Source: Nemertoderma westbladi (lineage: Eukaryota > Animalia > Xenacoelomorpha). From it: DNA of 64,000 nucleotides. A model generated the notes under the pieces. That model searched no databases. It saw only the letters and a program-made list of their open reading frames with translations, and was not told where the DNA came from. The translations under genes were made by a program, and so were the position numbers. Location of the stretch: NCBI GenBank assembly GCA_032718475.1, contig JAUCBJ010002048.1:4728-68727 (forward strand), given 5' to 3'. Shown in pieces: positions 3,367-22,887 of the stretch. Position 1 is the stretch's first letter, and every line of letters begins with the position of its first letter.

Positions 3367-5521
3367 TGTTACGGTATATGGCGCTGTATCCACATATATT
3401 AGTCCGTTATACTGTACGCAATATTAGTCCGTTATACTGTATGTAATATTAGTCCGTTGTGCAGCATAATATTTTAGATAAGGCATAATAGCGCAGTGAT
3501 ATTTAGATAGGGAAACCAAAACGCCCATATATTTTGAATCCATCCATTTTGTATAATATGTAGCCCTACCTACGTAATTTTGTATTAGGATATATGTAGA
3601 TAGTTCCAGGGTAGCAAGTTTAGTCGGACCCTGGATTTCGTGCTTGCTGATATTAGCTTCAATAGGGCTAGCATATAGGGACGCTGTCCTGGCCATTCAG
3701 CAGCCAGGGACATGATCCATTACGATATATGGTAATAATTTGAGGTTTGGGCGGCAATAGGGCTACAATCCGGCCTCCTTATTGGACTAACTGCTTCCAG
3801 GTTGGTCTAATGCTAGCGCGGACTGGAGAGCCAATAGGAGAGCGATTGAGTCACCCTATTGCATCACCCCATCCGGATCACCTATAAATTGGCGGCTTGC
3901 CGGTAGAGCTGTACAACAACCCTATACCTTACAATCCACACCCTTATATTTTAGCGTATTTCTGCAATTTGCTAAATTTTGATTAATTTCTTAAGATGAT
4001 TTGCTAGTGCGATTATTCTTGATTGTGTTTCTCAATTAATCCCATCGATTACTGCTAATTACAACTGGAACTATGATTTCTACCTTTTGTTAATGGTTCT
4101 ATGTGATTCCTTTCTACGCAATAATCCTAAGGGATTTCTGAGACTGTCAGACTTTGTGATTTGCATGCGCCGCTACGGTAGCTATTAGCATAATGGAGGG
4201 CTAAGGTGCCAGTGGGCGGTGGGCACATCGGGGGGTTGAGCGACTAAGGGAGAGCGGAGGATTCAAAGGCGGGCAACGCTGGCGGGGGGTCACCGTTGCG
4301 GTCGGGCAGTTCACGCTGTGGTATGCAGACCATTCGCCGGTACGGTAATTAAGGGGCTGATGATCCAGGTTTCGTCTCTATTTAGTATTAGGGGGGCAGG
4401 AATCAGGTTAGTTAGGAGTCCTATATGTACCCGGGAGAGGCCTGCACGTATCACAACGTGGAGTGTGAAGTACGAATAGTGAGTCGCACAACTGTGGGCT
4501 ATACAGTAGTTAACTGCATAATTGCGAACTGTGATTGCTGACGCTGATTGGTGTGTTATTGAAGTGTGCCTACGATTGTGAATGTTTAGGTAGGTGCCCC
4601 CTTTCTTTGATTGATTTCTATTTCTTAGTTACAACAATTAGTTACTGATTAGGTCAAAGTAATACGGCAATTTAGGCTATTACTAGCGAAACCTGTTGCG
4701 TAATAAATTAGAATTACGCATTCTGGAACTCTTAGTAATTAGTACGCTGTTACATATTTGTGACTGTAATTGATTAGTAAAAAATTAAGAATTAGTATGC
4801 AGCATAGCGGAGAGTAGCTAAGGTAATAATTAGAGTACTGTAAACTATTCACGCTGAGCGGTTATTTGCATTGGCGGGCAATCAGCTAGATCGCACTATT
4901 CGGTACACACAACACGCTAGTAATTTGCTGGCCTAAAGCCAGCTGCAGGCAAGTTTAGACCCAGAGCGGAACTATCCACGTAGAGAAAAATACTGTACCA
5001 TTTTGATTATTTTAAATATTCTCGCATTCACACATTACGATAGGGAACCCCCAGTATTCGCGATTAGAAAAGGCGTAGGCAATAGCGTGCTTTAATAGTG
5101 ATAGAATTAGGCGTAAGAATACTCTGAGTGCAAAGCCTCTCGCACTCGTCTTAAGTAAGCTTAGGGAGCTGACTCGGGTTTATTGTTTTGGTTATTCCCG
5201 CGTGGCTCATAGATTCGAACAGTTAGCTCTCTATCGAGCAATCGGTAGAGAAAGGAACAAGCAATTTTGCAGGAGCTGTGTAAATTTAGTAAATTATATT
5301 AGCGGACGGCAGATAAGCGCCATCTAACGGTAAGTAGCGGTTTGTATTTAGCAACCCTTACAATTTAGCAATATCACGCTCCTGATCCCCTTTACTTAAC
5401 AGTAGAGCAGTCTTTGTGTCTTATTGGTTAGGCGAGAACTTATTAGGTTGGCAGAGGAGTATACGGGTATTTGTCTGTTCAACAGTTCTGCTGTTAGTAT
5501 AGAGGTCGCGGTTGTTTATCA
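3367..5521 (+). repeat. 5' LTR (2155 bp)
   Basis: Starts TG, ends CA; direct repeat of 19549-21654. Contains CCAAT/ATTGG boxes, TGAGTCA, TATAAA (3883-3888) and AATAAA (4702-4707). Confidence 0.95.
3780..3915 (+). promoter_or_regulatory. Candidate LTR U3 promoter (CCAAT boxes, AP-1-like site, TATA)
   Basis: ATTGG ~3781, CCAAT ~3831, TGAGTCA ~3847, TATAAA 3883-3888. Motif-based only. Confidence 0.45.
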
Positions 5522-5533
5522 GTGATACGTGCA
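5522..5533 (+). promoter_or_regulatory. Atypical primer-binding site, complementary to the element's own LTR (4443-4454)
   Basis: GTGATACGTGCA directly abuts the LTR-terminal CA and lacks the TGG of a tRNA PBS. Its exact reverse complement TGCACGTATCAC lies at 4443-4454 and 20612-20623. Confidence 0.6.
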
Positions 5534-6711
5534 TTGGCTGTAGGCAGTAGCGTACAGTAAATAGAGTATTCTTAGGCTGATTAGTAGTATCACAGTATTA
5601 AGTAATAAATTGGAGCACGTGATCGTCTGCTGTAGGCTATAGGCTAGCGTACAGTAAGACATTGAGTATATTCTTTTAGGCTGTTAGTTTAGATTACTGT
5701 ATTCACTGGCTGCGTACAATAGTACAGTAGTACATTAGGCTGATTGCTGTTACTGCGTACGGTAGAAGGACATTTGTTTGCCGTACCACACACAGTATCA
5801 ATTAGGCTGTTAGGTTGGTGTACTGTTTTACTTACTGTACTGCATACAGTGGATGTACGGTAGTGCGTTTTGCTAATTGCGAATACAGCAGTTCCTTAGG
5901 CCTTAGGGCAAACAGTAATTAGTAAGTTTTTTGAAAATTTTAGCTAGGTTTGCGAGAATTCAGTTTCGGTCAAAATTATTTGTAAAATTCTAGAGTTTTG
6001 TACCGGTATGTTAGGTAACCGCTTAGTTATTTTATACCATCTGGAGATACATGGCAAGACGGAACTTCTGAGTTTGGGGTTCGTGTGGGTCTGCGGGTTC
6101 GGTTTGCAATCAGCGAAGGGCCTGAATCTTTGGACGCGGACGTGGAATCTCACAGCAAACAAGGTTAGTTGTTCTGTTGGCACCATTGTGTTTGTGGAAG
6201 CAGTAAAAATTACCGGTTGTTTAACTGCGAAGCTGAACTCAATTTATTAGTTAGGATATTTAGGTTTAGCCGGCCATGGTTTTTTTGAATCGCTCAAGTT
6301 AGAGAGAGAGTTAGAGAGAGTCGCAACCCGAAGATGTAGCCACGCGCTAGTGGATACATATAATATTTGAAACTAAAATTACGTTGATTAGAGCTATATA
6401 TATATAAAATTAGAAATATTCGGGCGGCAAGTATATTTTGAATATTTTGTATTAGATTCAGAGTTATTTTGTGCTATACCGGTATTTAATGCTATATAAT
6501 AGCTATATAATAATATTTTTGTTTAAATATTGTGCTAGTATTTGCTATAACTATATACCCCATTAAATTCACAATATTGCATTGCGAATTTATTTGACAT
6601 TTGGACCAACTGATTATTTGACAAATAATTTGACCGTATTTCGGTTAAATTATAATCATATCTCGAACCTTTGCGAGATATTTTTGCCGGAAGGCAAACA
6701 TTATTTAGACT

Positions 6712-9700
6712 ATGAGTGTCTCAGACAAGGAGGCACTAGAGGACAGCTATGAGATGGCGGCTGGACCGCCGACTGACGATAGCGTCAATATTACTGTTGA
6801 CGACAATGCCGACTATGACGACGCAGCGAGCGACGCTGACGTAAGTGAACAGGAGGACGAGACAGTGACTAGTGAGGAAGAACAACAACCTCAAGTAATA
6901 GTATTAGGATCCCCTACCGCTACTGTAAGGAAGGACTGTACAGCAGCCCGGACAGAGGTGAGTGATAGGGAGGGTAGTGTAGCAGAAGCGAGAGCCCGGA
7001 GCCCGGTTTCCAGACCTGTGGGTATGGTAAGTGCCGTGGTCCCGACGGCTGTAAGGAGTACCCGTAGTTCCCGAAATAATCCTTCAAGTCCACCGAGTGT
7101 AAGTCAGGTAAGTGATAGAGAGTTCGACACTGCGATAAAGAAGAAACTTCGCGCGCACGCCGGACATATAACTTGGACGGCGGACAAGGTAAGGAAGATG
7201 TTAGCTGACTCAGCGAACATCGGGAGGGTAGAGTTAGCAGAGATTAGAAGAGGATATAACTCAGCGTTATTCAAGCAGACGGAGGAGCTTGCAGTCCTAG
7301 CGAAGAAGGCAGTAGAGTCTCAGTCGAGCGACGTGGCGACGAGGATTTACGATAGGGTTTTGGCAGCCCTGTTGGAGCACCGCGAGTTATCGGAGCGATT
7401 CCGACGAGTTAGGACGGAGAACTGGCTGCTATGGGCATCCCAAGCGCAGGCGACTCAAGTGAGTGACGCAGAGTTAAGAGACTTAGTGGAGCGAGAAGAG
7501 ATCCAGGATAAAGAAGAGCGCCGTTATCAGAGGGAAGTTACTAGCTGGCTGATGCAGAATGGAGTGGTGGTACCGGGTCAGGTACTACCGACGACGGAGA
7601 ACATCCAACAGAGGACGTTGACTCCACCCGACGACGCATCCAGAGACAGTGGCGATTCCCAGGTTAGTCACGCGCGAGGTAAGGTTATATGTGCTAGATC
7701 CCTTGTTTCGCACAACTCGGCGGAGGAGAGAAGACGCCGACTGGACGAACAGCAGGCGGAAGTTTTGCGTGCATCGGAAGCGCGGAAGGAAGCCGAGCGG
7801 GAACGGGAGCGAACACGTAAGTTAGACGCGAAGTTGCGCGAATTGGAAGATAAAGGTAAGAGTGAGCGAGCGGAACGCGTGCAGAAGGAACGTGAACTTC
7901 AACTTGAACGCGAACGCAAGGAACGTGAACTCGAACTTGAACGCGAATGCAAGGAACGCGAACTCGAACTTGAACGCGAGCAGAAAGAACGCGAACTCCA
8001 GCTCGAACGCGAACGCAAGGAACGCGAACTCCAGCTCGAACGCGAACAGAAGAAATGCGAACTCGAACTTGAACGCGAACGCAAGGAACGCGAACTCGAG
8101 ATCGAGAAGGAGCGACGGGCGTTGTATGAAGAGAAGGCGCGTGTGGAAGAAGAGGGCGCAGCGAGACGAGCGAGGGAAGAAGAAGAACGTAAACTGGCGC
8201 AGTTGGAAAGTGCGAGATTAAGTTTAGAGAGCGAAGAACGGACTAGGAAGGCGAACGAAATCGCCGAGAAGGGGATGCGAATGATCGAAGAATGTGGGGC
8301 GAGTGTAGGGACAGAGTTGCGAGAACTGTTCGCACTGCAGAAGGCCGAACAGGAAGCGAGAACTCCGGCTATACGCGAGTCGACGACGACCAGAATTCCT
8401 ATACCCGGTCCAGCTATTACGAGTACACGGATCGCTAAACCGTTCTCTACATATCGCACGCCAGTTGGTATTAGTGCTTCACCTATCGCCCAGGATCCAC
8501 GTCATCGGAACACCGCACCACTATACACCGAACGAGAGAATGAAGAATTTAGAGAAGAAACTCCGACGGGACGAGTATTTGGCGAACCGAACCCGCGGGT
8601 TTGGAATACGCGGACGGAGCGCCGACCCAGTTCGACGGAGAACTTCCGGGTTAAACCGGAAGAGGGATCATATGAGAGACAGCGGATTACTCAGATAGAG
8701 CCGACTATACAACAGAACCCTAGCCAGGAATTTATTACGAGGGATGAGTTAAGTGCTAGTTTAGCGCAAGCTATATCGCCGCACATCCAACCTATAACGG
8801 ACATGCTTAGCAACCTACGGTTAAAGGAAGCAGCCCAGGTAAGAAGTAATTCTAATCCTAGCAGGCCTGAGTTAGACAAAGTCCAGCCTAGTCAACGAGT
8901 ACGCATATCGGAGGAGACTATACCACATAGACCTCAGGTAAGGACGCCTGTCCCGAATATTCATAATCCCAATTTCGAAAATTCGGCCGAGAAATTTATA
9001 CAAGATGCTTGGGTCAGGGCCTCGGCGCGCAAACCATCGCGAGCGCTAAGGACTGACACAGAGTCAAGCGATGAAGAGGAAGAAATGAGACGTCAGAAGT
9101 CCCGAAACTATAAGGAAAGAAGGACCGACGCGGAGCAGGTAAGTTGGAACCACCGGGAAAGGACCAGACTTAACAACCCTGCGGAACTAAACCATTTGTT
9201 AACCCGCAACGACGCAACCCTTAGGGACATAGGTAAGTTTGCTGCTAGGCAAGGACTGCCGACGCAACAACCCCAGAAGTTTATGGGTAACCATAAGCAT
9301 TGGAGGACCTTCAAAACCTATGTCGACGAGCAGCTAACCAACAGCACCTTTACTCCCAACGAGAAGTTCAACTATTTGCTTCAGATGCTCCATCGAGAAC
9401 CTAGAGCCATTGCTGATAACTTCGTCGGCAATGAAAGAGCATTCGAGTTAGCGATGAAGACGCTTAGTGACATCTACGGGAATAAAACCAAGATGGCGCA
9501 GTCGATAGTAGAAGACTTGGGTAAGGGCGGAAGGATTACAACTCCGTTAGAGCTGTTGAACTTAGCGAACGCTATTTCGAACGCATTGGACATCTTGAGG
9601 ACGGTGAATCTACCTCATCATGGTGATCACGCCGAAGTTTTAAAGAGCGTAATAAGACGTCTAAACATGCGTTATCGACAGAAATGGCGCAAATTAGAAA

Positions 9701-10374
9701 ATAAGTTGGAGGGTCAAGGTAAGGTGTTGACACTTCAGCATATTCATGACATGATAGCCACAGACGCAGTAGCAGAGATGAAATCAAACTTCTCAGAGGA
9801 GAATATGAGGGAGTCTAAGCCTGTTACCGGTAAGTCTATGGTAAGTTTTGACGATGACAGGACCACTGTGACATTTAACTCAGTAGACAGATATAATTCG
9901 AGTACCCTAGCCTTTAGATCAGACTCGCGAGTATGGTCAGGTGAGCGGTTAGATAGACCTAGGTTAAAGCAACAGGAGTTGCCGGATGGATTTGTAGGTT
10001 GCCAATACTGTTTACTAAAGGAGGTAAGATCTGACGATCATAAGTTAGATAGTTGCAGACGGTTCAAAGAATTAAATTCGGAACAGAGAAGAGTTCAAGT
10101 GCGGACGTTGGACACCTGTTGGGCATGTCTTGCGCCAGGCCATGTACGGCGGCAGTGCCCGAACAGCAAGGACGGATGCATGGAATGCGGCAGACTACAT
10201 CACAAGTTGCTACATGCGGATTTCCACACCCCAATGGACCGTTACTTACAGCGAAATCCTCACAGGAAGGGGAGCAAAGAACCCATATCGATAAGGAGGA
10301 ATACGTATACCGGCATTCAGGATGATGGTTACCAACCAGGTTCATCGGATGAGGATGGCGAGTCGAGCGCGTGA
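6712..10374 (+). CDS. BEL/Pao Gag (coiled-coil region, DUF1759-like capsid region, Cys/His motifs)
   Basis: 1220-aa ORF. PQKFMGNHKHWRTF...EKFNYLLQML (DUF1759-like). C-terminal CQYC...H.LDSC, CWACLAPGHVRRQC and CMECGRLHHKLLH are typical of BEL/Pao Gag. Confidence 0.9.
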   Translation: MSVSDKEALEDSYEMAAGPPTDDSVNITVDDNADYDDAASDADVSEQEDETVTSEEEQQPQVIVLGSPTATVRKDCTAARTEVSDREGSVAEARARSPVSRPVGMVSAVVPTAVRSTRSSRNNPSSPPSVSQVSDREFDTAIKKKLRAHAGHITWTADKVRKMLADSANIGRVELAEIRRGYNSALFKQTEELAVLAKKAVESQSSDVATRIYDRVLAALLEHRELSERFRRVRTENWLLWASQAQATQVSDAELRDLVEREEIQDKEERRYQREVTSWLMQNGVVVPGQVLPTTENIQQRTLTPPDDASRDSGDSQVSHARGKVICARSLVSHNSAEERRRRLDEQQAEVLRASEARKEAERERERTRKLDAKLRELEDKGKSERAERVQKERELQLERERKERELELERECKERELELEREQKERELQLERERKERELQLEREQKKCELELERERKERELEIEKERRALYEEKARVEEEGAARRAREEEERKLAQLESARLSLESEERTRKANEIAEKGMRMIEECGASVGTELRELFALQKAEQEARTPAIRESTTTRIPIPGPAITSTRIAKPFSTYRTPVGISASPIAQDPRHRNTAPLYTERENEEFREETPTGRVFGEPNPRVWNTRTERRPSSTENFRVKPEEGSYERQRITQIEPTIQQNPSQEFITRDELSASLAQAISPHIQPITDMLSNLRLKEAAQVRSNSNPSRPELDKVQPSQRVRISEETIPHRPQVRTPVPNIHNPNFENSAEKFIQDAWVRASARKPSRALRTDTESSDEEEEMRRQKSRNYKERRTDAEQVSWNHRERTRLNNPAELNHLLTRNDATLRDIGKFAARQGLPTQQPQKFMGNHKHWRTFKTYVDEQLTNSTFTPNEKFNYLLQMLHREPRAIADNFVGNERAFELAMKTLSDIYGNKTKMAQSIVEDLGKGGRITTPLELLNLANAISNALDILRTVNLPHHGDHAEVLKSVIRRLNMRYRQKWRKLENKLEGQGKVLTLQHIHDMIATDAVAEMKSNFSEENMRESKPVTGKSMVSFDDDRTTVTFNSVDRYNSSTLAFRSDSRVWSGERLDRPRLKQQELPDGFVGCQYCLLKEVRSDDHKLDSCRRFKELNSEQRRVQVRTLDTCWACLAPGHVRRQCPNSKDGCMECGRLHHKLLHADFHTPMDRYLQRNPHRKGSKEPISIRRNTYTGIQDDGYQPGSSDEDGESSA
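7885..8105 (+). repeat. In-frame 33-bp minisatellite in gag (ERELELERERK x ~6.5)
   Basis: AAGGAACGCGAACTCGAACTTGAACGCGAACGC units are visible and translate to an 11-aa E/R/K/L repeat. Confidence 0.85.
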
Positions 10375-10410
10375 GAAGTGACCTGCCAAGGTTTCACCGC
10401 GGATAGTTAA

Positions 10411-12966
10411 CCGACCAGCGCGCGGACGTATTTATCATCGGCCACGTCGGAAATATTTAGCGTGATTCCGGTGAAACTCACTGGCGATAAGGGATCGAAG
10501 AGAATATATGTGATGTTGGACACTGCGTCCACATTATCCTATATCGACGAGGAAGTGGCGAGAGCCGTTTCTAGCTTCCAGGACGCCGAGGAGATCCAAA
10601 TAGAGTTGAAGTCTATGCACGGGGTAGGAGACCTCAAGGGACACAGAATTTCGGTAGAACTAGATTCCCTACTTCCGAGAGACCAACATACTCGACAAGA
10701 ACGGAAAGCTTTGCCATTGGACGGATTTAAGTGTCTAGCTATGAAGGGATTCGGCAGGCAGTTAGGTAAGGTGCCGCCGATGAGTCCCATAGCACAGGAG
10801 TATTTTGACAAGCTCAGGATACCCAGACACCAGGTAGGTTATAGGAATGTTTCTATGTTGATTGGTGCAGAGCAGCTGATCGCACACCAGATATGGGAAA
10901 CGAGACCAGCTGAGCCGCATGTCAATGGACCACATGCCCATAGGACTATATTAGGTTGGTATACACGAGTACCCATGTCTTATGAGTTTACAGGTGGCGA
11001 CAAGCCAATGAACAGATACGATGAATTACGGCCTATAACTCAACCACCGTTAGTAGAACCACCAGACATAGACGAGTTTAGGAGAACCTGTATTGACCAC
11101 TATAGTGACTTTAGCGAGTCGGACGAGGAGTTGATTCCCGATAATGTTAGGTTGTCGGAACCACTTCATAACGACCGGACAGATAGTGAACCCGAGGACT
11201 ACTGTTATCAGACCCGTGGGTCTGGTTCAGCGGCCCACGCTACCTATTTGACTAACGTTTTGACTTATACTGACATAGTGGAGGGTCAGGTGGCTAAATA
11301 TCGAGACCTAGACATTTTCCAATACAGTGAGGAGGAGCTACAGAAGGAATTGATACGCCAGGACCTCGAGACAGGAGCCAGAACCGTCGAATGGCTGGAT
11401 AGGGACGCAATGGAACCCGGTGGATATGACCTAGCCATGTCTACTAATGAGAAACGGTCGCTGGAGATGATGGAAGACACCATACGTCTACTACCGACTG
11501 GACATTTTGAAGTTGGAATGTTGTGGCGTCGACAACCACCTAAGTTGGAGAACAACTATAACTTAGCCTTGAAAAGATTAAACGGAGTAAGGGCTCGGTT
11601 GTTAAGGAATCCGAACATTAGGGAGAAGTATTGCGCCCAGATCAACAACTATTTCGCTAAGGGATTTGCTGGGAAGGTAGAGGTCCCTGACTTAGTGACA
11701 GACCAGACTTATTACCTTCCACACCAATATGTGACTCACCCTGACAAGCCAGACAAAGTCCGAGTAGTCAACGACTGCGCAGCAGTCTATAGAGGTATGT
11801 CCCTGAATTCAGAGTTGATGGACGGACCCAACCTGAATAATTATTTGATTGGAATACTGTTGCGTTTTAGACAGCGGCGATTCGCATTTACTTGTGACAT
11901 CGAGGCGATGTTCCACCAGGTAAGAGCCTGTAAGGCAGACCAGGATAGCCTTCGCTTTCTCTGGTACGAGAATGAAGACCTATCCGGCCCAGTGGTTAAA
12001 TACCAGATGTACGTTAGGATATTTGGCGCCCGCGATAGTCCAAACGGCACGCTGTTTGTTCTAAAGAAAACGGCAACAGCCCAGATTGGTAAGTATCCAG
12101 TAGAGGTAATCGAGTCCATCTTGAGAAACTTCTATATGGACGACGGATTGGTGTCCAAGGACACAGAGGAACAAGCCATAGAAGTGGCTCACGGCCTGCA
12201 AGAGTGCTTGGCTACAGGGGGTTTTCCTCTGACCAAGTTCACTACAAACTCGGAGGCCCTATTAGAGTCGTTCCCGGTAAAAGATCGCGGGAGCGGAGAC
12301 ATTGAATTGGGGGTAGAACCAATCCCCATGGCGCGAGTACTGGGACTCGCTTGGAATCCGAACTCAGATAAGTTCCAGGTAAGAGTTAGATTTGAGCCCA
12401 GTAGCCCAGACAAAGTTTTGACAAAGAGGATTTGCTTATCGACATTAAGTAGACTATTTGACCCGATGAACTTTATCAGTCCGGTTATATTACAGGCACG
12501 AGCGTGCATGAGGAAAATTTGGTTGTCCGACGTAGAGTGGGACGAACCAATATCTCCTATACATGCAAAGCAGTGGAGGGAGTGGGAAGCTGAGTTGCAT
12601 CTATTGAAAAATATAGACGTACCCCGTTCCTACTTTCCGAATCAGCTGGTATTCCCAGCTGATCTCGAACTCCATCTGTTTAGTGACGCAAGTGACACCG
12701 GCTTTGGTATGGTAGCCTACCTTCGCCGAGAGGTAAGTCAGGACAAGTTTGAGACGGCTTTTGTGACTTCTAGATCAAAGACAATGCCGGTCAAATACAT
12801 GACTGTCCCTCGTGCAGAGTTACAGGCAGCTGTAGTTTCAGTCGAGGTAAGTAAGCAAATAACAGAGGAGTTAGACACGACATTGACCTTATTCTATTGG
12901 ACGGACGCATCCTTGGTGTTAGTATACATTGCGGCCGACAATATCCAATATCGAAACTTCCATTAG
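10411..12966 (+). CDS. Pol part 1: aspartic protease, reverse transcriptase, N-half of RNase H
   Basis: MLDTAS protease motif. RT motifs YYLPHQ.V, KVRVVNDCAA, DIEAMFHQV, FGARDSP and FYMDDG. RNase H motifs LHLFSDAS, TVPRAELQAA and FYWTDA. Open from 10411 in the gag frame; no ATG start. Confidence 0.9.
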   Translation, partial: PTSARTYLSSATSEIFSVIPVKLTGDKGSKRIYVMLDTASTLSYIDEEVARAVSSFQDAEEIQIELKSMHGVGDLKGHRISVELDSLLPRDQHTRQERKALPLDGFKCLAMKGFGRQLGKVPPMSPIAQEYFDKLRIPRHQVGYRNVSMLIGAEQLIAHQIWETRPAEPHVNGPHAHRTILGWYTRVPMSYEFTGGDKPMNRYDELRPITQPPLVEPPDIDEFRRTCIDHYSDFSESDEELIPDNVRLSEPLHNDRTDSEPEDYCYQTRGSGSAAHATYLTNVLTYTDIVEGQVAKYRDLDIFQYSEEELQKELIRQDLETGARTVEWLDRDAMEPGGYDLAMSTNEKRSLEMMEDTIRLLPTGHFEVGMLWRRQPPKLENNYNLALKRLNGVRARLLRNPNIREKYCAQINNYFAKGFAGKVEVPDLVTDQTYYLPHQYVTHPDKPDKVRVVNDCAAVYRGMSLNSELMDGPNLNNYLIGILLRFRQRRFAFTCDIEAMFHQVRACKADQDSLRFLWYENEDLSGPVVKYQMYVRIFGARDSPNGTLFVLKKTATAQIGKYPVEVIESILRNFYMDDGLVSKDTEEQAIEVAHGLQECLATGGFPLTKFTTNSEALLESFPVKDRGSGDIELGVEPIPMARVLGLAWNPNSDKFQVRVRFEPSSPDKVLTKRICLSTLSRLFDPMNFISPVILQARACMRKIWLSDVEWDEPISPIHAKQWREWEAELHLLKNIDVPRSYFPNQLVFPADLELHLFSDASDTGFGMVAYLRREVSQDKFETAFVTSRSKTMPVKYMTVPRAELQAAVVSVEVSKQITEELDTTLTLFYWTDASLVLVYIAADNIQYRNFH

Positions 12967-14594
12967 TTAGCGGACAACCGTCGCTGGCATTAGAGTCATG
13001 CAGTATTTATGACAAATTACTAAATTCGTCTGCCTCTTGGCTGACAATTTGTAAAAGAACTGCGTGGTTAAGCCGATACGTTTCGTACCTTTGTATAAAA
13101 CATTTGAAACATTTGAGAGAACCATCGAGCGCTAATAGTGAGCGAATTCAGAAATTGAAACAACCTCTGACAGAGGATGAGATTGATCAAGCGGAATTAA
13201 AGCATTTGAAACATTATCAAATGTGTGCCTTCCCAAAAGAATTCCATCTATTATCGGCTCAACGACCAGTTCTCTATAAACCCCTTAGAAAATGGAGTCC
13301 ATTAATCCATAAGGGTTTAATTTGTCATAGATCGAGAATCCAGACTGTCGACATAAACTCACAGTTTCGGTTCCCAGTGATAATCCCTAGTCACCCAATA
13401 GAATTGCAAAGAGCGATTCTATGGGATATACACAAGAGGTTGCATCACGCGGGAAGGTTACACTGTTTGTCGGCAGCGAGACAGCGATTCATTCTATTGC
13501 AGCCAAGCAGGGCAGTAGGCACTATGTACGACGCCTGTCTGGTTTGCAAGAGAGTGAACGCCAGAGTATTGGAACAGGAGATGGCTGAACTCCCGGAAGC
13601 GAGAGTGCAGGCATATGACCCACCCTTTACGAACACAGGGGTGGATTGTTTTGGTCCGATTGAAGCAAAGAGTGGACGGCTGACCCACAAGCGATGGGGT
13701 CTGCTACTGACATGCATGGCTAGTAGAGCCATACACATTGAGCGTGTGGCAGACATGTCGACCAAATCTCTGCTCCTGGCCTTGAAGAGATTTATGGCCA
13801 GGAGAGGACTAGTAAAGGCGTTCTACTCCGATAAGGGTACAAACTTTGTCAGAGGGAATAGCGAGTTGAACGCGGCTCATAAAGCGGCACAGAATAAGGA
13901 AATTTCTGCAGCACTTTTGCCGCAAAGAGTAGAGTGGAGATTTAATACTCCAGAAAGTCCTTGGAGAGGAGGAAGTTGGGAGCGTTTAGTTCGCTCTGTA
14001 AAGCAGGCCATTGCCAAAACATTGCCTGTAAACAAACAACTTACCGACGACGAACTGGTCACAGCTTTCATTGAAATCGAGCATACCCTAAACTCGAGGC
14101 CGATAGCTATGTTGCCAGACGGTGTTGCATTAACGCCGAATCATTTGCTAATGCAGAGTCCAGCATTTCTTGTGCCGGCATCAGAACCCATTAGTGCCGA
14201 CCTATATAGTCGTAAAGGCTGGAAAGTAACACAATTTGTCGCGTACACATTCTGGGAATATTGGCGGGAATACTATCTTCCCACCATATCTACCAGAACA
14301 AAGTGGTACAAAACGGTTCGGAGTCTCCAAAGGGGAGATTACGTACTGATAACCGAGCCGATTGTCAAGAGAAAGTACTGGGAGACGGGAGTGATCTTGC
14401 ACACACACCCAGACGTGCAAAACATAGTGCGCACAGTCACTGTGAAAATTATGTGCAAGTGTCCGCACCCAAAAAAGTGTAAAACTAATGGTTTACACAC
14501 CTTGGACCGACCGGTCCAAGATATCGTGTTATTAGAGGAGACACGTATCGAGACGGGAGATTATAATTTGTCTCCTGCCTCAAAACAGAATTAG
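12960..14594 (+). CDS. Pol part 2: integrase (frame-shifted from part 1 by an internal deletion)
   Basis: H-x3-HHAG...CLVC zinc finger. PFTNTGVDCFGP, SDKGTNF and GGSWERLV form the DDE core. LTPNHLL and a C-terminal RPVQDIVLL follow. Confidence 0.9.
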   Translation, partial: PLVSGQPSLALESCSIYDKLLNSSASWLTICKRTAWLSRYVSYLCIKHLKHLREPSSANSERIQKLKQPLTEDEIDQAELKHLKHYQMCAFPKEFHLLSAQRPVLYKPLRKWSPLIHKGLICHRSRIQTVDINSQFRFPVIIPSHPIELQRAILWDIHKRLHHAGRLHCLSAARQRFILLQPSRAVGTMYDACLVCKRVNARVLEQEMAELPEARVQAYDPPFTNTGVDCFGPIEAKSGRLTHKRWGLLLTCMASRAIHIERVADMSTKSLLLALKRFMARRGLVKAFYSDKGTNFVRGNSELNAAHKAAQNKEISAALLPQRVEWRFNTPESPWRGGSWERLVRSVKQAIAKTLPVNKQLTDDELVTAFIEIEHTLNSRPIAMLPDGVALTPNHLLMQSPAFLVPASEPISADLYSRKGWKVTQFVAYTFWEYWREYYLPTISTRTKWYKTVRSLQRGDYVLITEPIVKRKYWETGVILHTHPDVQNIVRTVTVKIMCKCPHPKKCKTNGLHTLDRPVQDIVLLEETRIETGDYNLSPASKQN

Positions 14595-15365
14595 TGTTGG
14601 ACGCAACTCACTTCGTATGCATTCCTCGTATGCAAATACAAGGAAATGCATAGGAGCGGGGTTGTGGTGACTTGCGTTGAGTTTTGTCTGGTGGGTATCA
14701 AAACGAAATTTTATTTTCAAAAATTTTGGAAAATTTAAAATTTTAAAAATTAGAAGTGAACCCAAGACAATTCCAGACGCTGTGTATAGACGCGTTTTAG
14801 AATTCGTCTATAGATATACAGTAATTTGAAAAGTCGTGAAGCCTGGAAAATAGCATTTAGAAACCATGGTGACGGCTATATTACGTAGGAGTGTAAATTG
14901 AGTTTAGCAACTTCCACAGATTGGTGCCAACAGTGCAACTAAGGTGCTAAAGGTTAGTAGCACCAGGGGCGTACATGGACCCCACTCAGTAGTTTGCAGG
15001 ATGTGTGATGTTCGATTATCAAACCTGTGGGTTTGGTATAGTCGGGTATTGTGGCTATGGTCCTTTCTAACTACTGTAGTTTAGTACGAGTGATGGGAGT
15101 AGTTTGGGCATCAAAAAGTGAGTTGGTCACGGCCAGTTTATCTCCAAAGTTTTGCGCTATGCATGGGAATAGGTTAGAGGATAGTTAGTTAGGAAGAGAC
15201 GGGATCTAGAGAGTCGAACCTGAACTGCTGGAAGGCGGGGGGGGGGGGGGGGGGGGGGTTCGGGAGGTCTGTCTTTCGGCGACATCTAACTGATTTACCC
15301 ACAGTGTAATTGGTTACGTAACGGCACTTATTGGGATATATATATATGTATATACGCGAGGCATA

Positions 15366-18300
15366 ATGGAGAAGGATATTAGAGCGCAACCGCGCAGAGG
15401 ATTTACTGCCAGAGAGGAGGCGGAGCTACCATTCGCGCGACCAGGATGTAAAGACTCTAACGTTTACTACCATGGGCGGTCCGTGATGGAGCTAAACGGA
15501 AAATATAAACCGACTTATGATAAGGAATTACGGAGGGAAAGAATGAGAGCGTTGGGGGACCGGATGGAAGTTTTGCGGAGAGAGTATCGCACGCGGTATC
15601 CCTACGACTTCGCTTTGGACGTATGTGACATTAGTGCAGACCCGGATGAGGAGATCGCACGACTGTACCATATGAATATGTATTTACGACACGAAGAACC
15701 TCTACCTGCAATCCGAGATCAGTTCGACGGAATGCATCTATACCGGAGGACTCGAGGCGAGGATCAGGAGACGCCGAAAGTCTTCAGCGTGTACAAGCTG
15801 TTCTACAAGTGTGGTGAATGCATGAATAAGCAAGACGTGGCGATTCCCGATCGACTAGACGAGCAACATCCGGAACCGATATTAACGCGATGTCCAGCTC
15901 ACCAGTTCCTTAGATACAACGAGGGAGGTTACCCGATGAGCAACCCGATGATCAGTATCGACTTCAGCGGAAAGCGACCTCCGAGACCCATTACGCCGAC
16001 CGTTACGACATTAGATCCGTATACGGAGATTAAACCCTGTTCGACACCCAGTTTGATAGAGACGGCAGCGGCCATTTCGCTGTACCGAGCCTACAAGGAT
16101 CTAGAGGCGCGGCGCGAAGCGGCGCGGGACTCGGGTACCAAACCCGCGGGTTTGGAGCTCTCGAGTCCCTGGACTGCGTTTACTTCACCTCACCGAGCGA
16201 GAAGCCTCACGCCTGAGCATCAGGACGACATAGACGCGTTGCGGCAGGAGGAGCGAGCGGCGAAGGCGAAAGAGTTATTTGAGAATCGGATAGCGGAGTA
16301 TAATAAGACCGCGGATAGACATCAAGAGGAGACGAGGAGAGTGACCGGATTTGTTCCACAGGTCGTATCTCAACCCCGACCGGTGTATTATTCCGACGGC
16401 ACCGAACCTGCGATATTAGTAGATCATCCGGAGTCGCGAGAAGCGATACGATTCTTGCCGATGGTAAGAATGGCGGATCATTGGAACGTTGACTGTCTAC
16501 GGGAAGTTTTATGCGCGAAGTTCTTGCGTGATGTCCCAATGCAGATCACAGATTACGACACATTGGATAAGATTGGAGCTCCGGGGAAGGAGAGTAAATT
16601 ATTTGGATGGTTGGATAAGTACATCAAGGTATGGGTCGCGGTGGCTACATTCCCAGACGACGAGGAGGTAGACCAGACGTGGCTGAGGAGGAAGGGTTCT
16701 TATACCCGATATGATGACCACAAGGCTATCGAGCGCATGTGGACCCCATCAGACGAGATTCAGCGTCAGTGGAGGAAAACGGAGGAATCACTGCAGGATT
16801 GGAGGGTGATGTTCTACGACAATGAAGGAGGGTCCCATCAAGAATGTTTGACTAGCAAGTGTATTCAAATTCGTGCAGCCGATGGTGTGACTCATGTGTT
16901 TATGCGTGTGAGGGCGGATCGAGAGAGACCGGAGCCCATCATAACGACACAATATCGGAAGGGGAAGGATCCTAGGGAGCAGATTTTGGAGGTATGCAGG
17001 CGAGGAGGTATGCACGGAGCGGAGCGTATCGACGCCAGGATGCTACCCAAGAAAGTTAGAGAGGCTATTCTCAACCAAGATTACGTCAAGGTGGGATCGG
17101 GAGTCCAGAGCGATTTGGAGAGCGACTTCAACGCCATGACTGATCTGGAAGATAGATTGCCGAGACCGTTTGTCGACACCAAGCTATTGTTGCTATGGGC
17201 ACAGGATATTGGAATTTATAGGGAGTATCCCAACTCTGCCAAGACTGGTATGGGCTTTATAGCACACTTGTTGTATAATTGGGACTTTAAGTTAAAGACG
17301 CAGAAGAAGTACGAGGAGGCGTATGGCGAATACAACACGCCACCGGGAGCGGAGTTCAAATCCCACTTCAAGCGGCAAGCGTTAGTGTATTGGAACATTT
17401 GCGCGCCACCCCGTGCGTCGCTACAATATTATTTGGTGCTTGAGTCGAACACGGTGACTTGTTTATTAGCGGATATCGTTGCGCGAGTTTTGAAGCGTCA
17501 TCCATTGGTATTCGGAGGAGATCAATACGTTCGCTCGAAAGGGGGAATCCAATCCGACGTGATGAAGCGTTTCTTAACCCCGTTCTTCAACCAATCGTTA
17601 GAGAATACGTCGATGGTTAGGAGAGGATTAGCGATATTCCAAGGAGTATATCGACAGAACATCGGAGATTTGGGAGACCGACCGTCGATGGAGTATCCGA
17701 CGCCAGAAGCTTTGGAGAAGTGGTTCGGGAATCAAACCCGCGGGTTTCGTACTCCCTTCCACTCGGAGGCTGATAGACCTGTTAAGGAGGGCTGGCCGGA
17801 GACGTTAGTAGAGGTGTTCGGAGTAGATCTTCCGGTGGAGAAGACATATCCGAAACGAACGCGGGAGGAAATATTGGAGATAGAGGACAAGGGCGAGGAT
17901 GTTTACTTTGTTCCGGATCGACAACCGTTGACCGGAGAGGACGACATCGTATTAGACATTGGGAAGGAAGGAAGTGCGAAACCGATTGGAGACCTCATAT
18001 ACGAGAGGGCCTGGTTTCCACAAGCGCGTAGGTGCAAATTGTGCGGCAGCACAAGGCACAATCTAAAGTCGTGCGACGCGGTAGTAGAGGCGGCGCATAA
18101 GGTCTGTCGTTGGTGTAATGAGACCGACCATTCGTTTCACACGTGCACCGTCTTCATTTCTCAATGTGGATATTGTGGGGTAAAGGGACATCGTAGCGCG
18201 AGATGTCAGCTGCGAGATGATTCCTTTCAAAACCATAGCGCTAACCTACTTCGGGAGATGTTAGATAAGTGGGAGAGTGTGGCTGATTACCATATTCAAG

Positions 18301-19073
18301 CGCAGATGCGTTGGTTACCATTTAAGGCGGGATATGGATTTTGGGCGGTAGACCCATCGCATGTTGCGTACGAGCCATATCTACAATCGCTACCACAATA
18401 TCAGGAACTCATCCTAACTGCTCAAGACCTTCCACAGAACACTGGAGTTATCGTAGTCCGAGAATACTTCAGACAATTGAATATGGATAACAAGTACACC
18501 TGGAACTTCGTTGCTATTTGCGATCGCATCACGAAGGGTGTATTTACGGAGACTAGAAAAGTGGTACGCGCGCGAGGTGAATGGAGGATGGCGGCTATAC
18601 AATACCGCAACGAATTCTTGTTGACTCATGTGCCAGTGGGTTCATTGACCGCTGAGAGGATACAGGGACAGAGGATCGCAGCGACCACAGCGACGACCGC
18701 TGGAGCTCAAGGCTCGCGGAAAGAACCAGGAGGAGGGGTCCACGACAAGCGTCAAGTCAAGGACGACCACTATCACTCTATTATAGAAGCACAGAGGTTG
18801 CAGCGCAAGGCGCAGGGAGCGTCGGAAAAAGCGCGTGTGCAACTGCATAAGGAAGAGTTGGCGGAAGCGACCACGGGAGCACGACAATTGGGACGAGGCC
18901 GAGGAAGAAGCACGAGCCGGGAATCTGTCGGGGCTCAGGGAACATCGTCGCCGGTTCCGGGGAGTGATGCCTCACGGATGCCGTCAACGGAGTCGACTGG
19001 AGGACGACTGGTGTATCTGGGGAGGGGGCGAAAGAGAGGAGCGAGCCCAAAGAACCCAGGAGCGGGTCGATAA
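15366..19073 (+). CDS. ORF3: DEDDy (WRN/RNase D/EXD-like) 3'-5' exonuclease domain plus three CCHC zinc knuckles
   Basis: 1235-aa intact ORF. ExoI VMFYDNEG followed by CIQIRAADGVTHVF. ExoII LPKKVREAILNQDYVKVGSGVQSD and FVDTK. ExoIII YWN..PP..SLQYYLVLE. Knuckles CKLCGSTRHNLKSC, CRWCNETDHSFHTC and CGYCGVKGHRSARC (18033-18206). Domain call is by motif recognition. Confidence 0.75.
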   Translation: MEKDIRAQPRRGFTAREEAELPFARPGCKDSNVYYHGRSVMELNGKYKPTYDKELRRERMRALGDRMEVLRREYRTRYPYDFALDVCDISADPDEEIARLYHMNMYLRHEEPLPAIRDQFDGMHLYRRTRGEDQETPKVFSVYKLFYKCGECMNKQDVAIPDRLDEQHPEPILTRCPAHQFLRYNEGGYPMSNPMISIDFSGKRPPRPITPTVTTLDPYTEIKPCSTPSLIETAAAISLYRAYKDLEARREAARDSGTKPAGLELSSPWTAFTSPHRARSLTPEHQDDIDALRQEERAAKAKELFENRIAEYNKTADRHQEETRRVTGFVPQVVSQPRPVYYSDGTEPAILVDHPESREAIRFLPMVRMADHWNVDCLREVLCAKFLRDVPMQITDYDTLDKIGAPGKESKLFGWLDKYIKVWVAVATFPDDEEVDQTWLRRKGSYTRYDDHKAIERMWTPSDEIQRQWRKTEESLQDWRVMFYDNEGGSHQECLTSKCIQIRAADGVTHVFMRVRADRERPEPIITTQYRKGKDPREQILEVCRRGGMHGAERIDARMLPKKVREAILNQDYVKVGSGVQSDLESDFNAMTDLEDRLPRPFVDTKLLLLWAQDIGIYREYPNSAKTGMGFIAHLLYNWDFKLKTQKKYEEAYGEYNTPPGAEFKSHFKRQALVYWNICAPPRASLQYYLVLESNTVTCLLADIVARVLKRHPLVFGGDQYVRSKGGIQSDVMKRFLTPFFNQSLENTSMVRRGLAIFQGVYRQNIGDLGDRPSMEYPTPEALEKWFGNQTRGFRTPFHSEADRPVKEGWPETLVEVFGVDLPVEKTYPKRTREEILEIEDKGEDVYFVPDRQPLTGEDDIVLDIGKEGSAKPIGDLIYERAWFPQARRCKLCGSTRHNLKSCDAVVEAAHKVCRWCNETDHSFHTCTVFISQCGYCGVKGHRSARCQLRDDSFQNHSANLLREMLDKWESVADYHIQAQMRWLPFKAGYGFWAVDPSHVAYEPYLQSLPQYQELILTAQDLPQNTGVIVVREYFRQLNMDNKYTWNFVAICDRITKGVFTETRKVVRARGEWRMAAIQYRNEFLLTHVPVGSLTAERIQGQRIAATTATTAGAQGSRKEPGGGVHDKRQVKDDHYHSIIEAQRLQRKAQGASEKARVQLHKEELAEATTGARQLGRGRGRSTSRESVGAQGTSSPVPGSDASRMPSTESTGGRLVYLGRGRKRGASPKNPGAGR

Positions 19074-19548
19074 TACATCATAGCACAGGGCGACAGACTC
19101 TAGATATATACATCATCGTCGCTCTGATGTATATTGTAGCATTTAGAAATCTTCGACTAGACTCATATACACTAGTTGAGCTGTTTTGAATTTATATTAT
19201 GAGAGAGGCGAAGGAAGTGATTGGGGAGACAAACCTGCGGGTTTGGCTTACTCCTTTCACTTGCCCTAGCAAATTTTTTTATATATATTTGATTTTGTAT
19301 GTAGTAATCATTATGTAGTACGAACGAGAAACAATATTTGTAAATTTAATTTGAATGAGAGAGATAATATTTGTAAATTTAATTTGTATGCAATTCATTA
19401 TGCAATATCTATAGCAATATTTTGTAAATAGTAGGATTTATAGTATCAAGTATTTAGATTATTTGGAAGAAATTTATTTTGTTTGTATACATCACCTTAT
19501 ACTCTTCTACAGTTGGAGGGAAACATTATATGATTTCCCTTGGAGCGG

Positions 19549-21654
19549 TGTTACGGTATATGGCGCTGTATCCACATATATTAGTCCGTTATACTGTACG
19601 CAATATTAGTCCGTTATACTGTATGTAATATTAGTCCGTTGTGCAGCATAATATTTTAGATAAGGCATAATAGCGCAGTGATATTTAGATAGGGAAACCA
19701 AAACGCCCATATATTTTGAATCCATCCATTTTGTATAATATGTAGCCCTACCTACGTAATTTTGTATTAGGATATATGTAGATAGTTCCAGGGTAGCAAG
19801 TTTAGTCGGACCCTGGATTTCGTGCTTGCTGATATTAGCTTCAATAGGGCTAGCATATAGGGACGCTGTCCTGGCCATTCAGCAGCCAGGGACATGATCC
19901 ATTACCATATATGGTAATAATTTGAGGTTTGGGCGGCAATAGGGCTACAATCCGGCCCCCTTATTGGACTAACTGCTTCCAGGTTGGTCTAATGCTAGCG
20001 CGGACTGGAGAGCCAATAGGAGAGCGATTGAGTCACCCTATTGCATCACCCCATCCGGATCACCTATAAATTGGCGGCTTGCCGGTAGAGCTGTACAACA
20101 ACCCTATACCTTACAATCCACACCCTTATATTTTAGCGTATTTCTGCAATTTGCTAAATTTTGATTAATTTCTTAAGATGATTTGCTAGTGCGATTATTC
20201 TTGATTGTGTTTCTCAATTAATCCCATCGATTACTGCTAATTACAACTGGAACTATGATTTCTACCTTTTGTTAATGGTTCTATGTGATTCCTTTCTACG
20301 CAATAATCCTAAGGGATTTCTGAGACTGTCAGACTTTGTGATTTGCATGCGCCGCTACGGTAGCTATTAGCATAATGGAGGGCTAAGGTGCCAGTGGGCG
20401 GTGGTTGAGCGACTAAGGGAGAGCGGAGGATTCAAAGGCGGGCAACGCTGGCGGGGGGTCACCGTTGCGGTCGGGCAGTTCACGCTGTGGTATGCAGACC
20501 ATTCGCCGGTACGGTAATTAAGGGGCTGATGATCCAGGTTTCGTCTCTATTTAGTATTAGGGGGGCAGGAATCAGGTTAGTTAGGAGTCCTATATGTACC
20601 CGGGAGAGGCCTGCACGTATCACAACGTGGAGTGTGAAGTACGAATAGTGAGTCGCACAACTGTGGGCTATACAGTAGTTAACTGCATAATTGCGAACTG
20701 TGATTGCTGACGCTGATTGGTGTGTTATTGAAGTGTGCCTACGATTGTGAATGTTTAGGTAGGTGCCCCCTTTCTTTGATTGATTTCTATTTCTTAGTTA
20801 CAACAATTAGTTACTGATTAGGTCAAAGTAATACGGCAATTTAGGCTATTACTAGCGAAACCTGTTGCGTAATAAATTAGAATTACGCATTCTGGAACTC
20901 TTAGTAATTAGTACGCTGTTACATATTTGTGACTGTGATTGATTAGTAAAAAATTAAGAATTAGTACGCAGCATAGCGGAGAGTAGCTAAGGTAATAATT
21001 AGAGTACTGTAAACTATTCACGCTGAGCGGTTATTTGCATTGGCGGGCAATCAGCTAGATCGCACTATTCGGTACACACAACACGCTAGTAATTTGCTGG
21101 CCTAAAGCCAGCTGCAGGCAAGTTTAGACCCAGAGCGGAACTATCCACGTAGAGAAAAATACTGTACCATTTTGATTATTTTAAATATTCTCGCATTCAC
21201 ACATTACGATAGGGAACCCCCAGTATTCGCGATTAGAAAAGGCGTAGGCAATAGCGTGCTTTAATAGTGATAGAATTAGGCGTAAGAATACTCTGAGTGC
21301 AAAGCCTCTCGCACTCGTCTTAAGTAAGCTTAGGGAGCTGACTCGGGTTTATTGTTTTGGTTATTCCCGCGTGGCTCATAGATTCGAACAGTTAGCTCTC
21401 TATCGAGCAATCGGTAGAGAAAGGAACAAGCAATTTTGCAGGAGCTGTGTAAATTTAGTAAATTATATTAGCGGACGGCAGATAAGCGCCATCTAACGGT
21501 AAGTAGCGGTTTGTATTTAGCAACCCTTACAATTTAGCAATCGTCTTTGTGTCTTATTGGTTAGGCGAGAACTTATTAGGTTGGCAGAGGAGTATACGGG
21601 TATTTGTCTGTTCAACAGTTCTGCTGTTAGTATAGAGGTCGCGGTTGTTTATCA
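19549..21654 (+). repeat. 3' LTR (2106 bp)
   Basis: Copy of 3367-5521 with a 13-bp and a net 36-bp deletion plus ~4 substitutions seen by eye. Preceded by a short purine-rich TTGGAGCGG and a hairpin AGGGAAACAT...ATGATTTCCCT. Confidence 0.95.
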
Positions 21655-22060
21655 GGAATCATGGCTAATGTGGGGTCGCTGAATCTTTTTGTAATGTTAA
21701 GTTTTTCGATTGGGGCAAGCCTTGAGTGTCCGAATCCTGATCAAAACTGATCTTTGCTGATCATGGTCAAGATCATGATCTGATCGCTCCAAAAAAGTCT
21801 TTTTTAAGGTAAATCCATATGCTGCCTATCGATTGGCGCCGGTTCCAAGTCCGTAGCATTAGCGGTTCTAGAGATCGACGCATAGCAACGAGGTTGCTAG
21901 GGAAGCGGACTTTTTGACTCAAATTGGCCCTAGACGGAGAACCGTAGACATTTGAAACGTAATGTATATGGGAAAAAGTCTTCTGGATAAATTTTTTTTT
22001 TGGGGGGGGGGGGGGTCTAGGAACATCCTATTGTTGGTTTTCGCTTAGTTTCTGAGAAAA
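21655..22060. mobile_element. Continuation of the host repeat split by the LTR insertion
   Basis: GAATCTTTTTGTAATGTTAAG and GATCATGATC motifs match the 2200-3360 units. Confidence 0.5.
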
Positions 22061-22887
22061 GCTTCTCCCCCAAATTCCAAACTCCCCCAATCTATAAAGG
22101 CGTGCGCAATGACTAGTTCCGTGGCCGAGCACGGAATTGGGTTCTCCGAACACGATAACCTGCGGTTGGGGCCCTGACCGTCCAGTCCCTTAGCCAATCC
22201 CTAATTTCCCCATGGCCCTGTATTGGCCTCTCTGAGAGATGAGCTGATGCACTGGCATCTCTCTGTTGCTGACAATATATCCTCATTCTCCCTCCTATCC
22301 AATATTGTGTTAACAATATGATTCGTAAATCATGAATTTCCCCATTTTCCGCTGGGTGGTGCAGCAAATTGGATCCGCTAACACATCATCTCATCATCCC
22401 GGGGAGTGTTTGACGACTTGCTGGACTAAATATATCTCGGTTGCAGTTGTTATTTAGATTTTTGAATGGCCTAGTGTACATTGGTGTAATGGGTGAATGA
22501 ATATATGTTGATAAAGGAAATTAAATCAATGCGTAAATAAAATTCAATTTGCCTATGGGTAAAAAAGTAGACCCTTTTCTACTTACTTTGTGGTATATTC
22601 AAGAATGAAATGTTTTTTATTTTTTTATTTTAGATAAATATATTGAATTTTTATGGTAGTGCTAATGGCACTACCACATAAATTCAATTTACTTATTTGG
22701 CCGCGTAATATTTTAGAACATTACTACTGAATGTTAACACTGCTTAAAAATAGTTATTAAACTAATTCAAGACAGTGTGCACCTGCACAAGAGATATTAC
22801 TATAAATATAATAGGGAAGGACACGATGAGAAAGGGTCTTTAGACAATGAGGATTTCATTCGGAAAAGTTTAAAATTCCTTTGCAAT

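Follow-up and report, generated by a model that had tools for sequence, protein, structure and literature searches.

An 18-kb BEL/Pao retrotransposon of Nemertoderma westbladi that likely controls its own RNA in several unusual ways

Does an 18-kb retrotransposon run its priming, splicing and RNA processing as one linked programme, or does it carry separate devices for managing one very long transcript? The question is raised by a 64,000-nucleotide stretch of the genome of Nemertoderma westbladi (GenBank assembly GCA_032718475.1, contig JAUCBJ010002048.1, positions 4,728 to 68,727 of the forward strand), which is called the window here and supplies all position numbers. An earlier note, made from the sequence alone, described the element at 3367-21654 as a BEL/Pao retrotransposon with an integrated RNA-structure programme. 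The present analysis suggests that the element likely controls its own RNA in several unusual ways. The best explanation, to which we give an even chance, is a self-primed BEL/Pao family that makes an exonuclease-knuckle protein from a spliced RNA, with donor-like motifs, hairpins and complementary arms as separate devices. An excess of the splice-donor motif GGTAAG, on the sense strand only, was added in the present analysis.

The element is 18.3 kb long. As the earlier note described, it has a target-site duplication (TSD), GGAAT on either side, and near-identical long terminal repeats (LTRs), which in a self-comparison show 5 mismatches plus one gap of 13 nt and one of 36 nt. It belongs to BEL/Pao by its proteins, but is not a typical profiled semotivirus. 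Its pol has the order protease, reverse transcriptase (RT), RNase H and integrase, with a Pao-type RNase H (PF05380) and DUF5641, and Gag is about 1220 residues long. Part of gag (7717-8166) is a tandem Glu/Arg-rich tract of 11-residue units, probably a coiled coil. A protein search gave 468 matches among proteins of 1491-4255 residues; the 120 matches listed are 35-42% identical over RT-RNase H, and the named ones among them come from hemichordates, echinoderms, a limpet, a coral and fish. The best identity of 42% among these 120 agrees with the distinct lineage that had been proposed. In a tree of 69 matched sequences, built without named clade references, the element has a long terminal branch (1.04 against a median of 0.27).

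The copy in the window is damaged in gag-pol at three places: two in-frame stops between gag and pol, and a deletion in pol near 12950-13010, where roughly 70-80 codons are gone and the frame changes. The family is large, with 27,911 and 12,055 contigs from two DNA runs lying on the element. In runs X1 and X3 the window's letters at both stops are contradicted by more than 99% of the summed depth; the family therefore has a single gag-pol frame, and both stops are private to the studied copy. Programmed read-through and a mini-intron at the gag/pol border are thereby ruled out. The variant listing of the contig data covers 40 of 1364 places and omitted some fixed differences, and absence from it was given no weight. 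In some contigs the two flanks of the element are joined without it, which shows the target to be a repeat in its own right that also has empty sites. The studied copy, defective in gag-pol, was inserted recently and belongs to a high-copy 18-kb BEL/Pao family, and its near-identical LTRs around a broken core suggest that it was mobilised in trans by intact relatives. A set of 19 distant BEL loci, at 34-44% identity, was found in metagenomes; only one of them (L005) has two LTRs, none of the 19 has a match to ORF3, the element's third open reading frame (ORF), and no related loci were found in viral contigs. ARAGORN and Rfam found no element-encoded tRNA and no known RNA family.

The first unusual feature is the primer-binding site (PBS). 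The earlier note took it for a non-tRNA site complementary to the element's own LTR, and as a sequence the complementarity is confirmed. No TGG lies within 0-5 nt of the 5' LTR, and 5522-5533, at offset 0 from the LTR, is the exact 12-nt complement of LTR positions 4443-4454; none of 3000 shuffled LTRs reaches 12. Four further pairs lie beyond a 2-nt bulge (up to 16 in all), and the duplex has a predicted energy of -25.1 kcal/mol. In four folds, which start at 4340, 4420, 4439 and 4443 and all run to 5560, the helix has a probability of 0.98. A published operational test for predicted self-priming (Neumann et al.) asks for at least 10 nt complementary to the LTR and 0-5 nt from it (PMC6317226, available in part), and the duplex found here lies within those bounds. 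Judged by sequence, the element is likely self-primed, which would require an RNA start within 4340-4443 or an internal cut.

Several results weigh against self-priming. The helix probability drops to 0.40 in a fold from 4300 and to 0.45 in a fold of 4400-5580, and in the best fold from 3900 the helix is replaced and the primer piece pairs elsewhere. The usual distance from a TATA motif to the start is about 30 nt. The TATAAA at 3883 would start the RNA about 530 nt upstream of the primer piece, and neither it nor the TATATG at 4422 points to a start at 4439-4443; the piece 4443-4454 is probably not the RNA's 5' end. Positions 5529-5538 also seem to resemble the complement of a metazoan tRNA-Gly end.

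This last likeness fits a reading that we consider unlikely, in which relics and DNA-level signals make up most of the unusual features: priming would be by a host tRNA, or a fragment of one, at a worn site, the arms would be a decayed inverted duplication, the near-palindromes would be DNA sites for a host factor and ORF3 would be a captured passenger. The tRNA-like stretch, however, begins 7 nt from the LTR and has no TG pairing to the tRNA end, whereas the self-complement begins at 0 nt. Host-tRNA priming would agree with ICTV (the international committee on virus taxonomy), which gives tRNA-Arg or tRNA-Gly and an 18-nt PBS for BEL/Pao (PMC8742986).

A primer built by splicing was also considered and rejected, since splicing gives a complement of 8 nt at best and the unspliced sequence one of 12 nt. 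In L005, a distant and intact-looking BEL locus, neither candidate LTR end has a TGG within 5 nt, and a clear self-complement was not seen either (1281-1640); its LTR end is uncertain. The LTR's AATAAA is partly buried in a hairpin, a parallel to the poly(A) hairpin of HIV-1. At the other end, the purine run adjoining the 3' LTR is short (19542-19548), and a longer run 25 nt upstream sits paired in a hairpin (19513-19548).

The second feature is the excess of donor motifs. From gag to RNase H the most over-represented hexamer is GGTAAG (G/GTAAG), with 20 copies against 5.5 expected. The excess is present both in gag (14 against 4.1) and in the protease, RT and RNase H part (6 against 1.4), and in each it was reached by 0 of 500 synonymous shuffles; the minus strand of these two parts has none. 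When the gag repeat tract is removed GGTAAG is still the top hexamer (19 against 5.7), with AGGTAA fourth and GTAAGT fifth. Sites with 8 of 9 donor-consensus letters number 13 against 2.9 expected, with a maximum of 7 in 500 shuffles. Altogether, the stretch from gag to RNase H has 3.5 times as many donor-like motifs as expected, and they end 2.4 kb before the candidate acceptor at 15304. Further downstream, integrase has no GGTAAG (0.1 expected) and ORF3 has one (1.0 expected), and these two parts have no site with 7 of 9 donor letters (2.3 expected). As a control, 8 of the 19 distant metagenome BEL loci were used, and GGTAAG is absent from all 8 of their long ORFs, where about 9 would be expected in all.

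The simplest reading of these counts is selection for U1 binding along the part that would be unique to the unspliced RNA; alternatively, some of the motifs may be used to make a gag-only RNA. The excess is confined to one strand and persists in controls that preserve the codons; a relic cannot account for this. In the copia element EVD, U1 binding at a donor site blocks early termination of the unspliced RNA (PMC5580714, available in part). No description of a donor-motif excess in any transposon's coding sequence was found in the literature searched.

ORF3 is likely made from a spliced subgenomic RNA. The splice signals that the earlier note placed at the base of a long stem were found only in part as claimed: candidate donors and an acceptor are present, and the acceptor ending at 15304 is one of 12 pattern matches and among the two most pyrimidine-rich. 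Counting against it, the acceptor fails a stricter pyrimidine test; the donor motifs of the 5' region are no more frequent than chance. Run X4, only guessed to be RNA, is unspliced over 5875-6380 with no joint among the 15 of 102 joints listed, and is uninformative on splicing. A U-rich AG ends at 6708, 3 nt before the gag ATG, and the leader upstream has 17 ATGs counted from 3914; this AG may serve as an acceptor, and most of the long leader would then be absent from the gag-pol mRNA. Two small hairpins (6658-6681 and 6683-6698) lie just upstream of the same ATG. A run of 22 G (15237-15258) lies just upstream of the candidate ORF3 branch point, and the contig reads seem cut there.

The complementarity that brackets gag-pol had been put at about 0.5-0.75 kb. 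It is indeed colinear, but its solid core, 6075-6385 against 14984-14702, is only about 0.3 kb long and patchy: 8 blocks with 117 paired nt, the longest of 21 nt. Five outer blocks of 6-14 nt, which reach 5779 and 15326, are each at chance level. The colinear chain of ungapped blocks scores 44.9, against 16.2 +/- 3.3 (maximum 25.3) in 25 local shuffles and 17.3-24.3 in five real non-coding control pairs. In five stricter settings, with plus-strand wobble or none, the best local match outscores every one of 150 whole-region shuffles and, of 150 local shuffles, fails to beat 0-1, while a lenient alignment score of the arms shows no excess over shuffles. Relative to the null, the score is 2.8 times as high for the plus strand and 2.7 times for the minus strand, a point against the proposed RNA pairing in so far as G-U bias does not single it out; an old inverted duplication fits equally well. 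Both this lack of a clear strand bias and the block coverage of only about 40% of the arms are what the relic reading would lead one to see.

The third device, five hairpins with the same loop, C(YGYG)G, stood up and grew in number. The strict motif has 5 copies, with 0 in 200 shuffles; with G-U pairs allowed there are 7, against a mean of 0.23 and a maximum of 2 in 300 shuffles. The pattern was drawn after seeing the data, and the counts overstate significance somewhat. The minus strand has at most 3 such motifs, the other 45.7 kb of the window has one, and so do the 19 distant BEL loci together. The hairpins are spaced 1.1-3.8 kb apart and none lies inside the LTRs. Their loops vary only C/T, and their stems, several with long lower parts, are kept through G-U pairs and one double change. 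A degenerate copy lies at 7011-7026, other copies of the element have one extra motif in the stretch deleted here, and hairpin 6 pairs one base further in contigs of three runs. The 45 nt around hairpin 6 are 80% like those around hairpin 7. The motif survives synonymous recoding in 2-46 of 1000 trials, and two of the five coding hairpins are more stable than 95% of synonymous recodings.

Two points weigh against an RNA signal of this kind. The other three coding hairpins do not exceed their recodings in stability at the 5% level (55, 84 and 290 of 1000), and three hairpins would remain in the ORF3 RNA, unlike a packaging signal. CCHC nucleocapsid knuckles read exposed G-x-G loops, and by analogy the hairpins may be binding sites for the CCHC knuckles of Gag or ORF3. 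That 3 of the 7 motifs are perfect DNA palindromes would suit DNA sites for a host factor; the variants, however, break the palindrome only by plus-strand C/T, as an RNA hairpin permits.

The fourth feature is ORF3 itself, which the earlier note had described as an intact 1235-residue frame with a DEDDy exonuclease and CCHC knuckles. The frame is open in the studied copy, and both an exonuclease-like domain and three CX2CX4HX4C knuckles can be recognised. The Atlas puts residues 470-740 with the PF01612 exonucleases (0.92, 25 of 30 matches), and the 162 shared features fall slightly short of what true members usually show. Eight unnamed relatives of 514-727 residues came out of a full phmmer scan, seven of them matching in two stretches; the relatives share the nuclease-like domain, the three knuckles and a conserved tail. 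In one of the relatives (P0121) the triple-knuckle module and tail are present twice and most acidic nuclease residues are lost. A profile of the ORF3 domain matches EXD2 (E 2e-4), then Egalitarian (E 0.03), and WRN, and DEDD-type exonucleases lead both fold searches of the structure model. D583 (Exo II) and Y689 (Exo III) are present, and D485/E487 are favoured as Exo I (score 9.0 against -8.7, 3 of 300 shuffles, three accurate alignments).

Other results make the exonuclease assignment less secure. Two other alignments chose a register without D485/E487, so that the first motif is register-dependent, and the last acidic residue of Exo III is E693 and not D, as in 2 of 7 relatives. Pfam gives no match to ORF3 at E 0.1. 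The structure model has a mean predicted local distance difference test (pLDDT) of 54 and no Foldseek match at E 0.001, and the best match in the fold searches has a Z of only 6.9, with a root-mean-square deviation (rmsd) of 4.2 over 163 aligned residues. Word-index searches with the single ORF3 protein or the family alignment found no match. The structure model was built from alignment A2, whose first-motif register was later disfavoured, and says nothing on the active site; a single-sequence fold (pLDDT 33) was unusable. A match of ORF3 to rotavirus VP4, from phmmer against solved structures, was rejected as chance only. In three runs an ORF3 variant skips 329 nt with 2 letters between (15511-15841), a net 327 nt of the N-terminal part, and the frame is kept. 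Upstream of ORF3 lies a frame of six codons whose stop overlaps the ORF3 start in TAATG (15346-15368); such overlaps occur in cases of reinitiation, and this one may be chance.

ORF3 is most likely an RNA-binding 3'-5' trimming enzyme that would act on the element's own RNA, its substrate being a guess. The nematode element Cer7 reportedly has an exonuclease-like gene or its own tRNA, which was neither confirmed nor excluded and which, if true, would make ORF3 less novel. Juno and Vesta, LTR elements of bdelloid rotifers, are Ty3/gypsy-type elements, not BEL/Pao. Their DEDDy ORF3s are already published (PMC5408684, available in part), so an exonuclease ORF3 in LTR elements is on record, but for Ty3/gypsy-type elements; roles in RNA 3'-end processing or silencing were proposed there without an assay. 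The same source reports no significant departure of the rotifer ORF3s from neutrality within the genome, as would be expected of a captured passenger. For BEL/Pao, no description of self-priming or of an exonuclease ORF3 was found in the literature searched, with older subscription papers, Repbase and GyDB outside its reach.

The silencing role proposed for the rotifer genes fits a different idea of ORF3, which seems to us rather improbable: priming and splicing would be as in our best explanation, and ORF3 would be a counter-defence or transport protein, whose Nibbler/EXD1/Egalitarian-like domain would trim or sequester host small RNAs or tether the hairpin-bearing RNA to transport machinery. 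Among the fold matches Nibbler ranks second (Z 6.5, rmsd 4.0, 162 aligned), as Egalitarian does among the profile matches, and the knuckle pair matches Lin28 best (E 3e-6). Many other DEDD enzymes, however, match as well as Nibbler and Egalitarian do, the likeness to Lin28 is of the generic knuckle kind, and nothing in the analysis bears on host small RNAs.

Could all these parts be one programme after all? In such a scheme the arms would loop out gag-pol and drive the ORF3 splice, and the ORF3 nuclease, anchored by its knuckles at the hairpins, would trim the element's RNA to the 12-bp duplex that serves as primer. We hold this to be improbable, and we put the same low weight on its fullest version, in which about twenty decoy donors within gag-pol would load U1 so that a 17-kb RNA gets past termination, a long-range stem would switch splicing towards the third gene, and an exonuclease guided by its knuckles and docked on evenly spread tetraloop hairpins would make the primer, independent of host tRNA. 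All the parts do occur in one family and in a fitting order, with the donors at 5330 and 5922 before arm 1 and the acceptor after arm 2. To serve as primer, a piece within the transcript would have to be cut and possibly trimmed, and an exonuclease with CCHC knuckles is the build of trypanosome RNase D, which is said to trim guide RNAs. On the other hand, the support for linked parts is their co-occurrence in one family, and Tf1-type priming reportedly needs no accessory nuclease. In X1 and X3 the contigs over ORF3 add up to about half the depth found over gag-pol; summed depth is not copy number, but the drop is a hint that some copies or sister families lack this ORF3.

The best explanation, with its separate devices, would work as follows. 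A cut at its 3' end would turn the paired LTR piece into the primer, in the manner of Tf1. Since the poly(A) signal is downstream of this cut, strand transfer would keep an overlap of about 250 nt. A donor in the leader would be joined to the acceptor at 15304, giving the ORF3 RNA. The donor-like motifs would recruit the U1 small nuclear ribonucleoprotein (snRNP) to the unspliced RNA, which would thereby be shielded from terminating early, with the last exon kept free of the motifs. The hairpins would be bound by CCHC knuckles of Gag or ORF3, the arms may pair and so influence which of the two acceptors, that of gag or that of ORF3, is used, and ORF3 would trim the element's own RNA 3'-5'.

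BEL/Pao replication has been described as poorly understood and tRNA-primed (PMC8742986), and this family offers a test of self-priming outside the Tf1 group. It also offers a route to the function of exonuclease genes gained by unrelated retroelements, a question open since 2017 (PMC5408684, available in part). A coding region selected for donor-like motifs would be a case of a mobile element recruiting U1 wholesale and not at one site. If the parts are unlinked, the donor excess and the exonuclease-knuckle protein family remain as separate new observations.

The features of the element are collected in the table. Downstream of it the window holds a GGAGCG microsatellite of 2.2 kb (22880-25120), a long 16-bp satellite (28160 to about 34000) and a trinucleotide run of 1.5 kb (36100-37560). 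Host genes are presumably represented by a Cys-loop ligand-gated channel (25842-27231, minus strand), a mitochondrial carrier (58309-58821, plus strand) and an intronless N-myristoyltransferase (62148-63839, minus strand). Fragments resembling non-LTR reverse transcriptases, a THAP/P-type transposase (39797-40937) and a Ulp1-type protease (45708-46139) lie within 34600-56000.

Table. Features of the element and its borders, in window positions
Feature	Position	Strand	Remark
Left TSD GGAAT	3362..3366	+	
5' LTR	3367..5521	+	2155 nt, TG...CA
TATAAA	3883..3888	+	only one of LTR
TATATG	4422	+	weaker
Candidate self-primer	4439..4454	+	exact-complement piece 4443-4454; second copy at 20612-20623
AATAAA hairpin	4697..4720	+	8 bp; only AATAAA of LTR, at 4702
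Candidate donor G/GTAAGT	5330..5335	+	in LTR; predicted
Primer-binding site position	5522..5533	+	directly after LTR, no TGG start
Second candidate donor GTAAGT	5922	+	upstream of arm 1
Arm 1	6075..6385	+	patchy; faint extension to 5779
Hairpin 1	6086..6101	+	weak, G-U rich; loop start 6092
gag part	6712..10374	+	DUF1759 and BEL-type triple Cys-His box (10000-10215); ends at private stop
Donor-like motif zone	6841..12856	+	28 GTAAG, 20 GGTAAG; sense strand only
Hairpin 2	8587..8604	+	loop start 8594
Protease, RT, RNase H	10411..12966	+	YMDD at 12133; PF05380; starts after second private stop
Hairpin 3	11207..11226	+	A-T to G-C pair change against others; loop start 11215
Integrase	13014..14594	+	H2C2, core, DUF5641
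Arm 2	14702..14984	+	faint extension to 15326
Hairpin 4	15017..15038	+	long lower stem; loop start 15026
Candidate branch point CTAAC and acceptor	15286..15304	+	downstream of arm 2, 61 nt before ORF3 ATG
ORF3	15366..19073	+	1235 codons, open; 770 nt behind pol
Hairpin 5	16138..16155	+	in element's most stable 60-nt window (-31.7 kcal/mol); loop start 16145
DEDDy-like 3'-5' exonuclease domain	16797..17510	+	predicted; D485, E487, D583, Y689, E693
Hairpin 6	17734..17747	+	loop start 17739
Three CX2CX4HX4C zinc knuckles	18033..18206	+	then conserved tail common to eight relatives
Hairpin 7	19230..19245	+	3' untranslated part; loop start 19236
3' LTR	19549..21654	+	2106 nt, TG...CA
Right TSD GGAAT	21655..21659	+	

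Compared with known systems, the element shares with BEL/Pao (Belpaoviridae; PMC8742986, and PMC3118150, available in part) the TG...CA LTRs, TSD, triple Cys-His Gag, the order from protease to integrase, the domains PF03564, PF05380 and PF18701, and the single gag-pol frame of its family. It differs from BEL/Pao as profiled in size (a genome of 4.2-10 kb with LTRs of 0.2-1.2 kb, against 18.3 kb with 2.1-kb LTRs), in its third gene (env-like there, an exonuclease-knuckle protein here) and in its primer site (for tRNA-Arg/Gly there, no canonical one here). With Tf1 and Tj1 it shares a primer site beside the LTR end that is complementary to a stretch of the LTR (PMC4600332, PMC6317226, both available in part). 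Those are Ty3/gypsy (or plant copia TAR) elements, whereas the Pol of this element is BEL/Pao, which places it outside the Tf1/sushi group with its Ty3/gypsy chromovirus-type RT; their primer is a 5' segment of the mRNA (PMC4600332), whereas here the piece lies 1076 nt into a 2155-nt LTR. Arabidopsis EVD has one conserved donor (PMC5580714, available in part), against about 20-28 donor-like motifs within 6 kb of coding sequence here. Juno and Vesta, compared by description only, have an RNase D-like DEDDy gene in the env position with a changed acidic motif, as here, and a Cys-His-Cys motif in two; the available part of their description does not mention a triple CCHC module (PMC5408684). Among cellular proteins, Trypanosoma brucei RNase D (PDB 7c42), EXD2, Nibbler and Egalitarian share the DEDDy-type domain, and RNase D also has CCHC knuckles; their structural-alignment identity to ORF3 is 8-14%, and ORF3 has about 480 N-terminal and about 290 C-terminal extra residues without a match.

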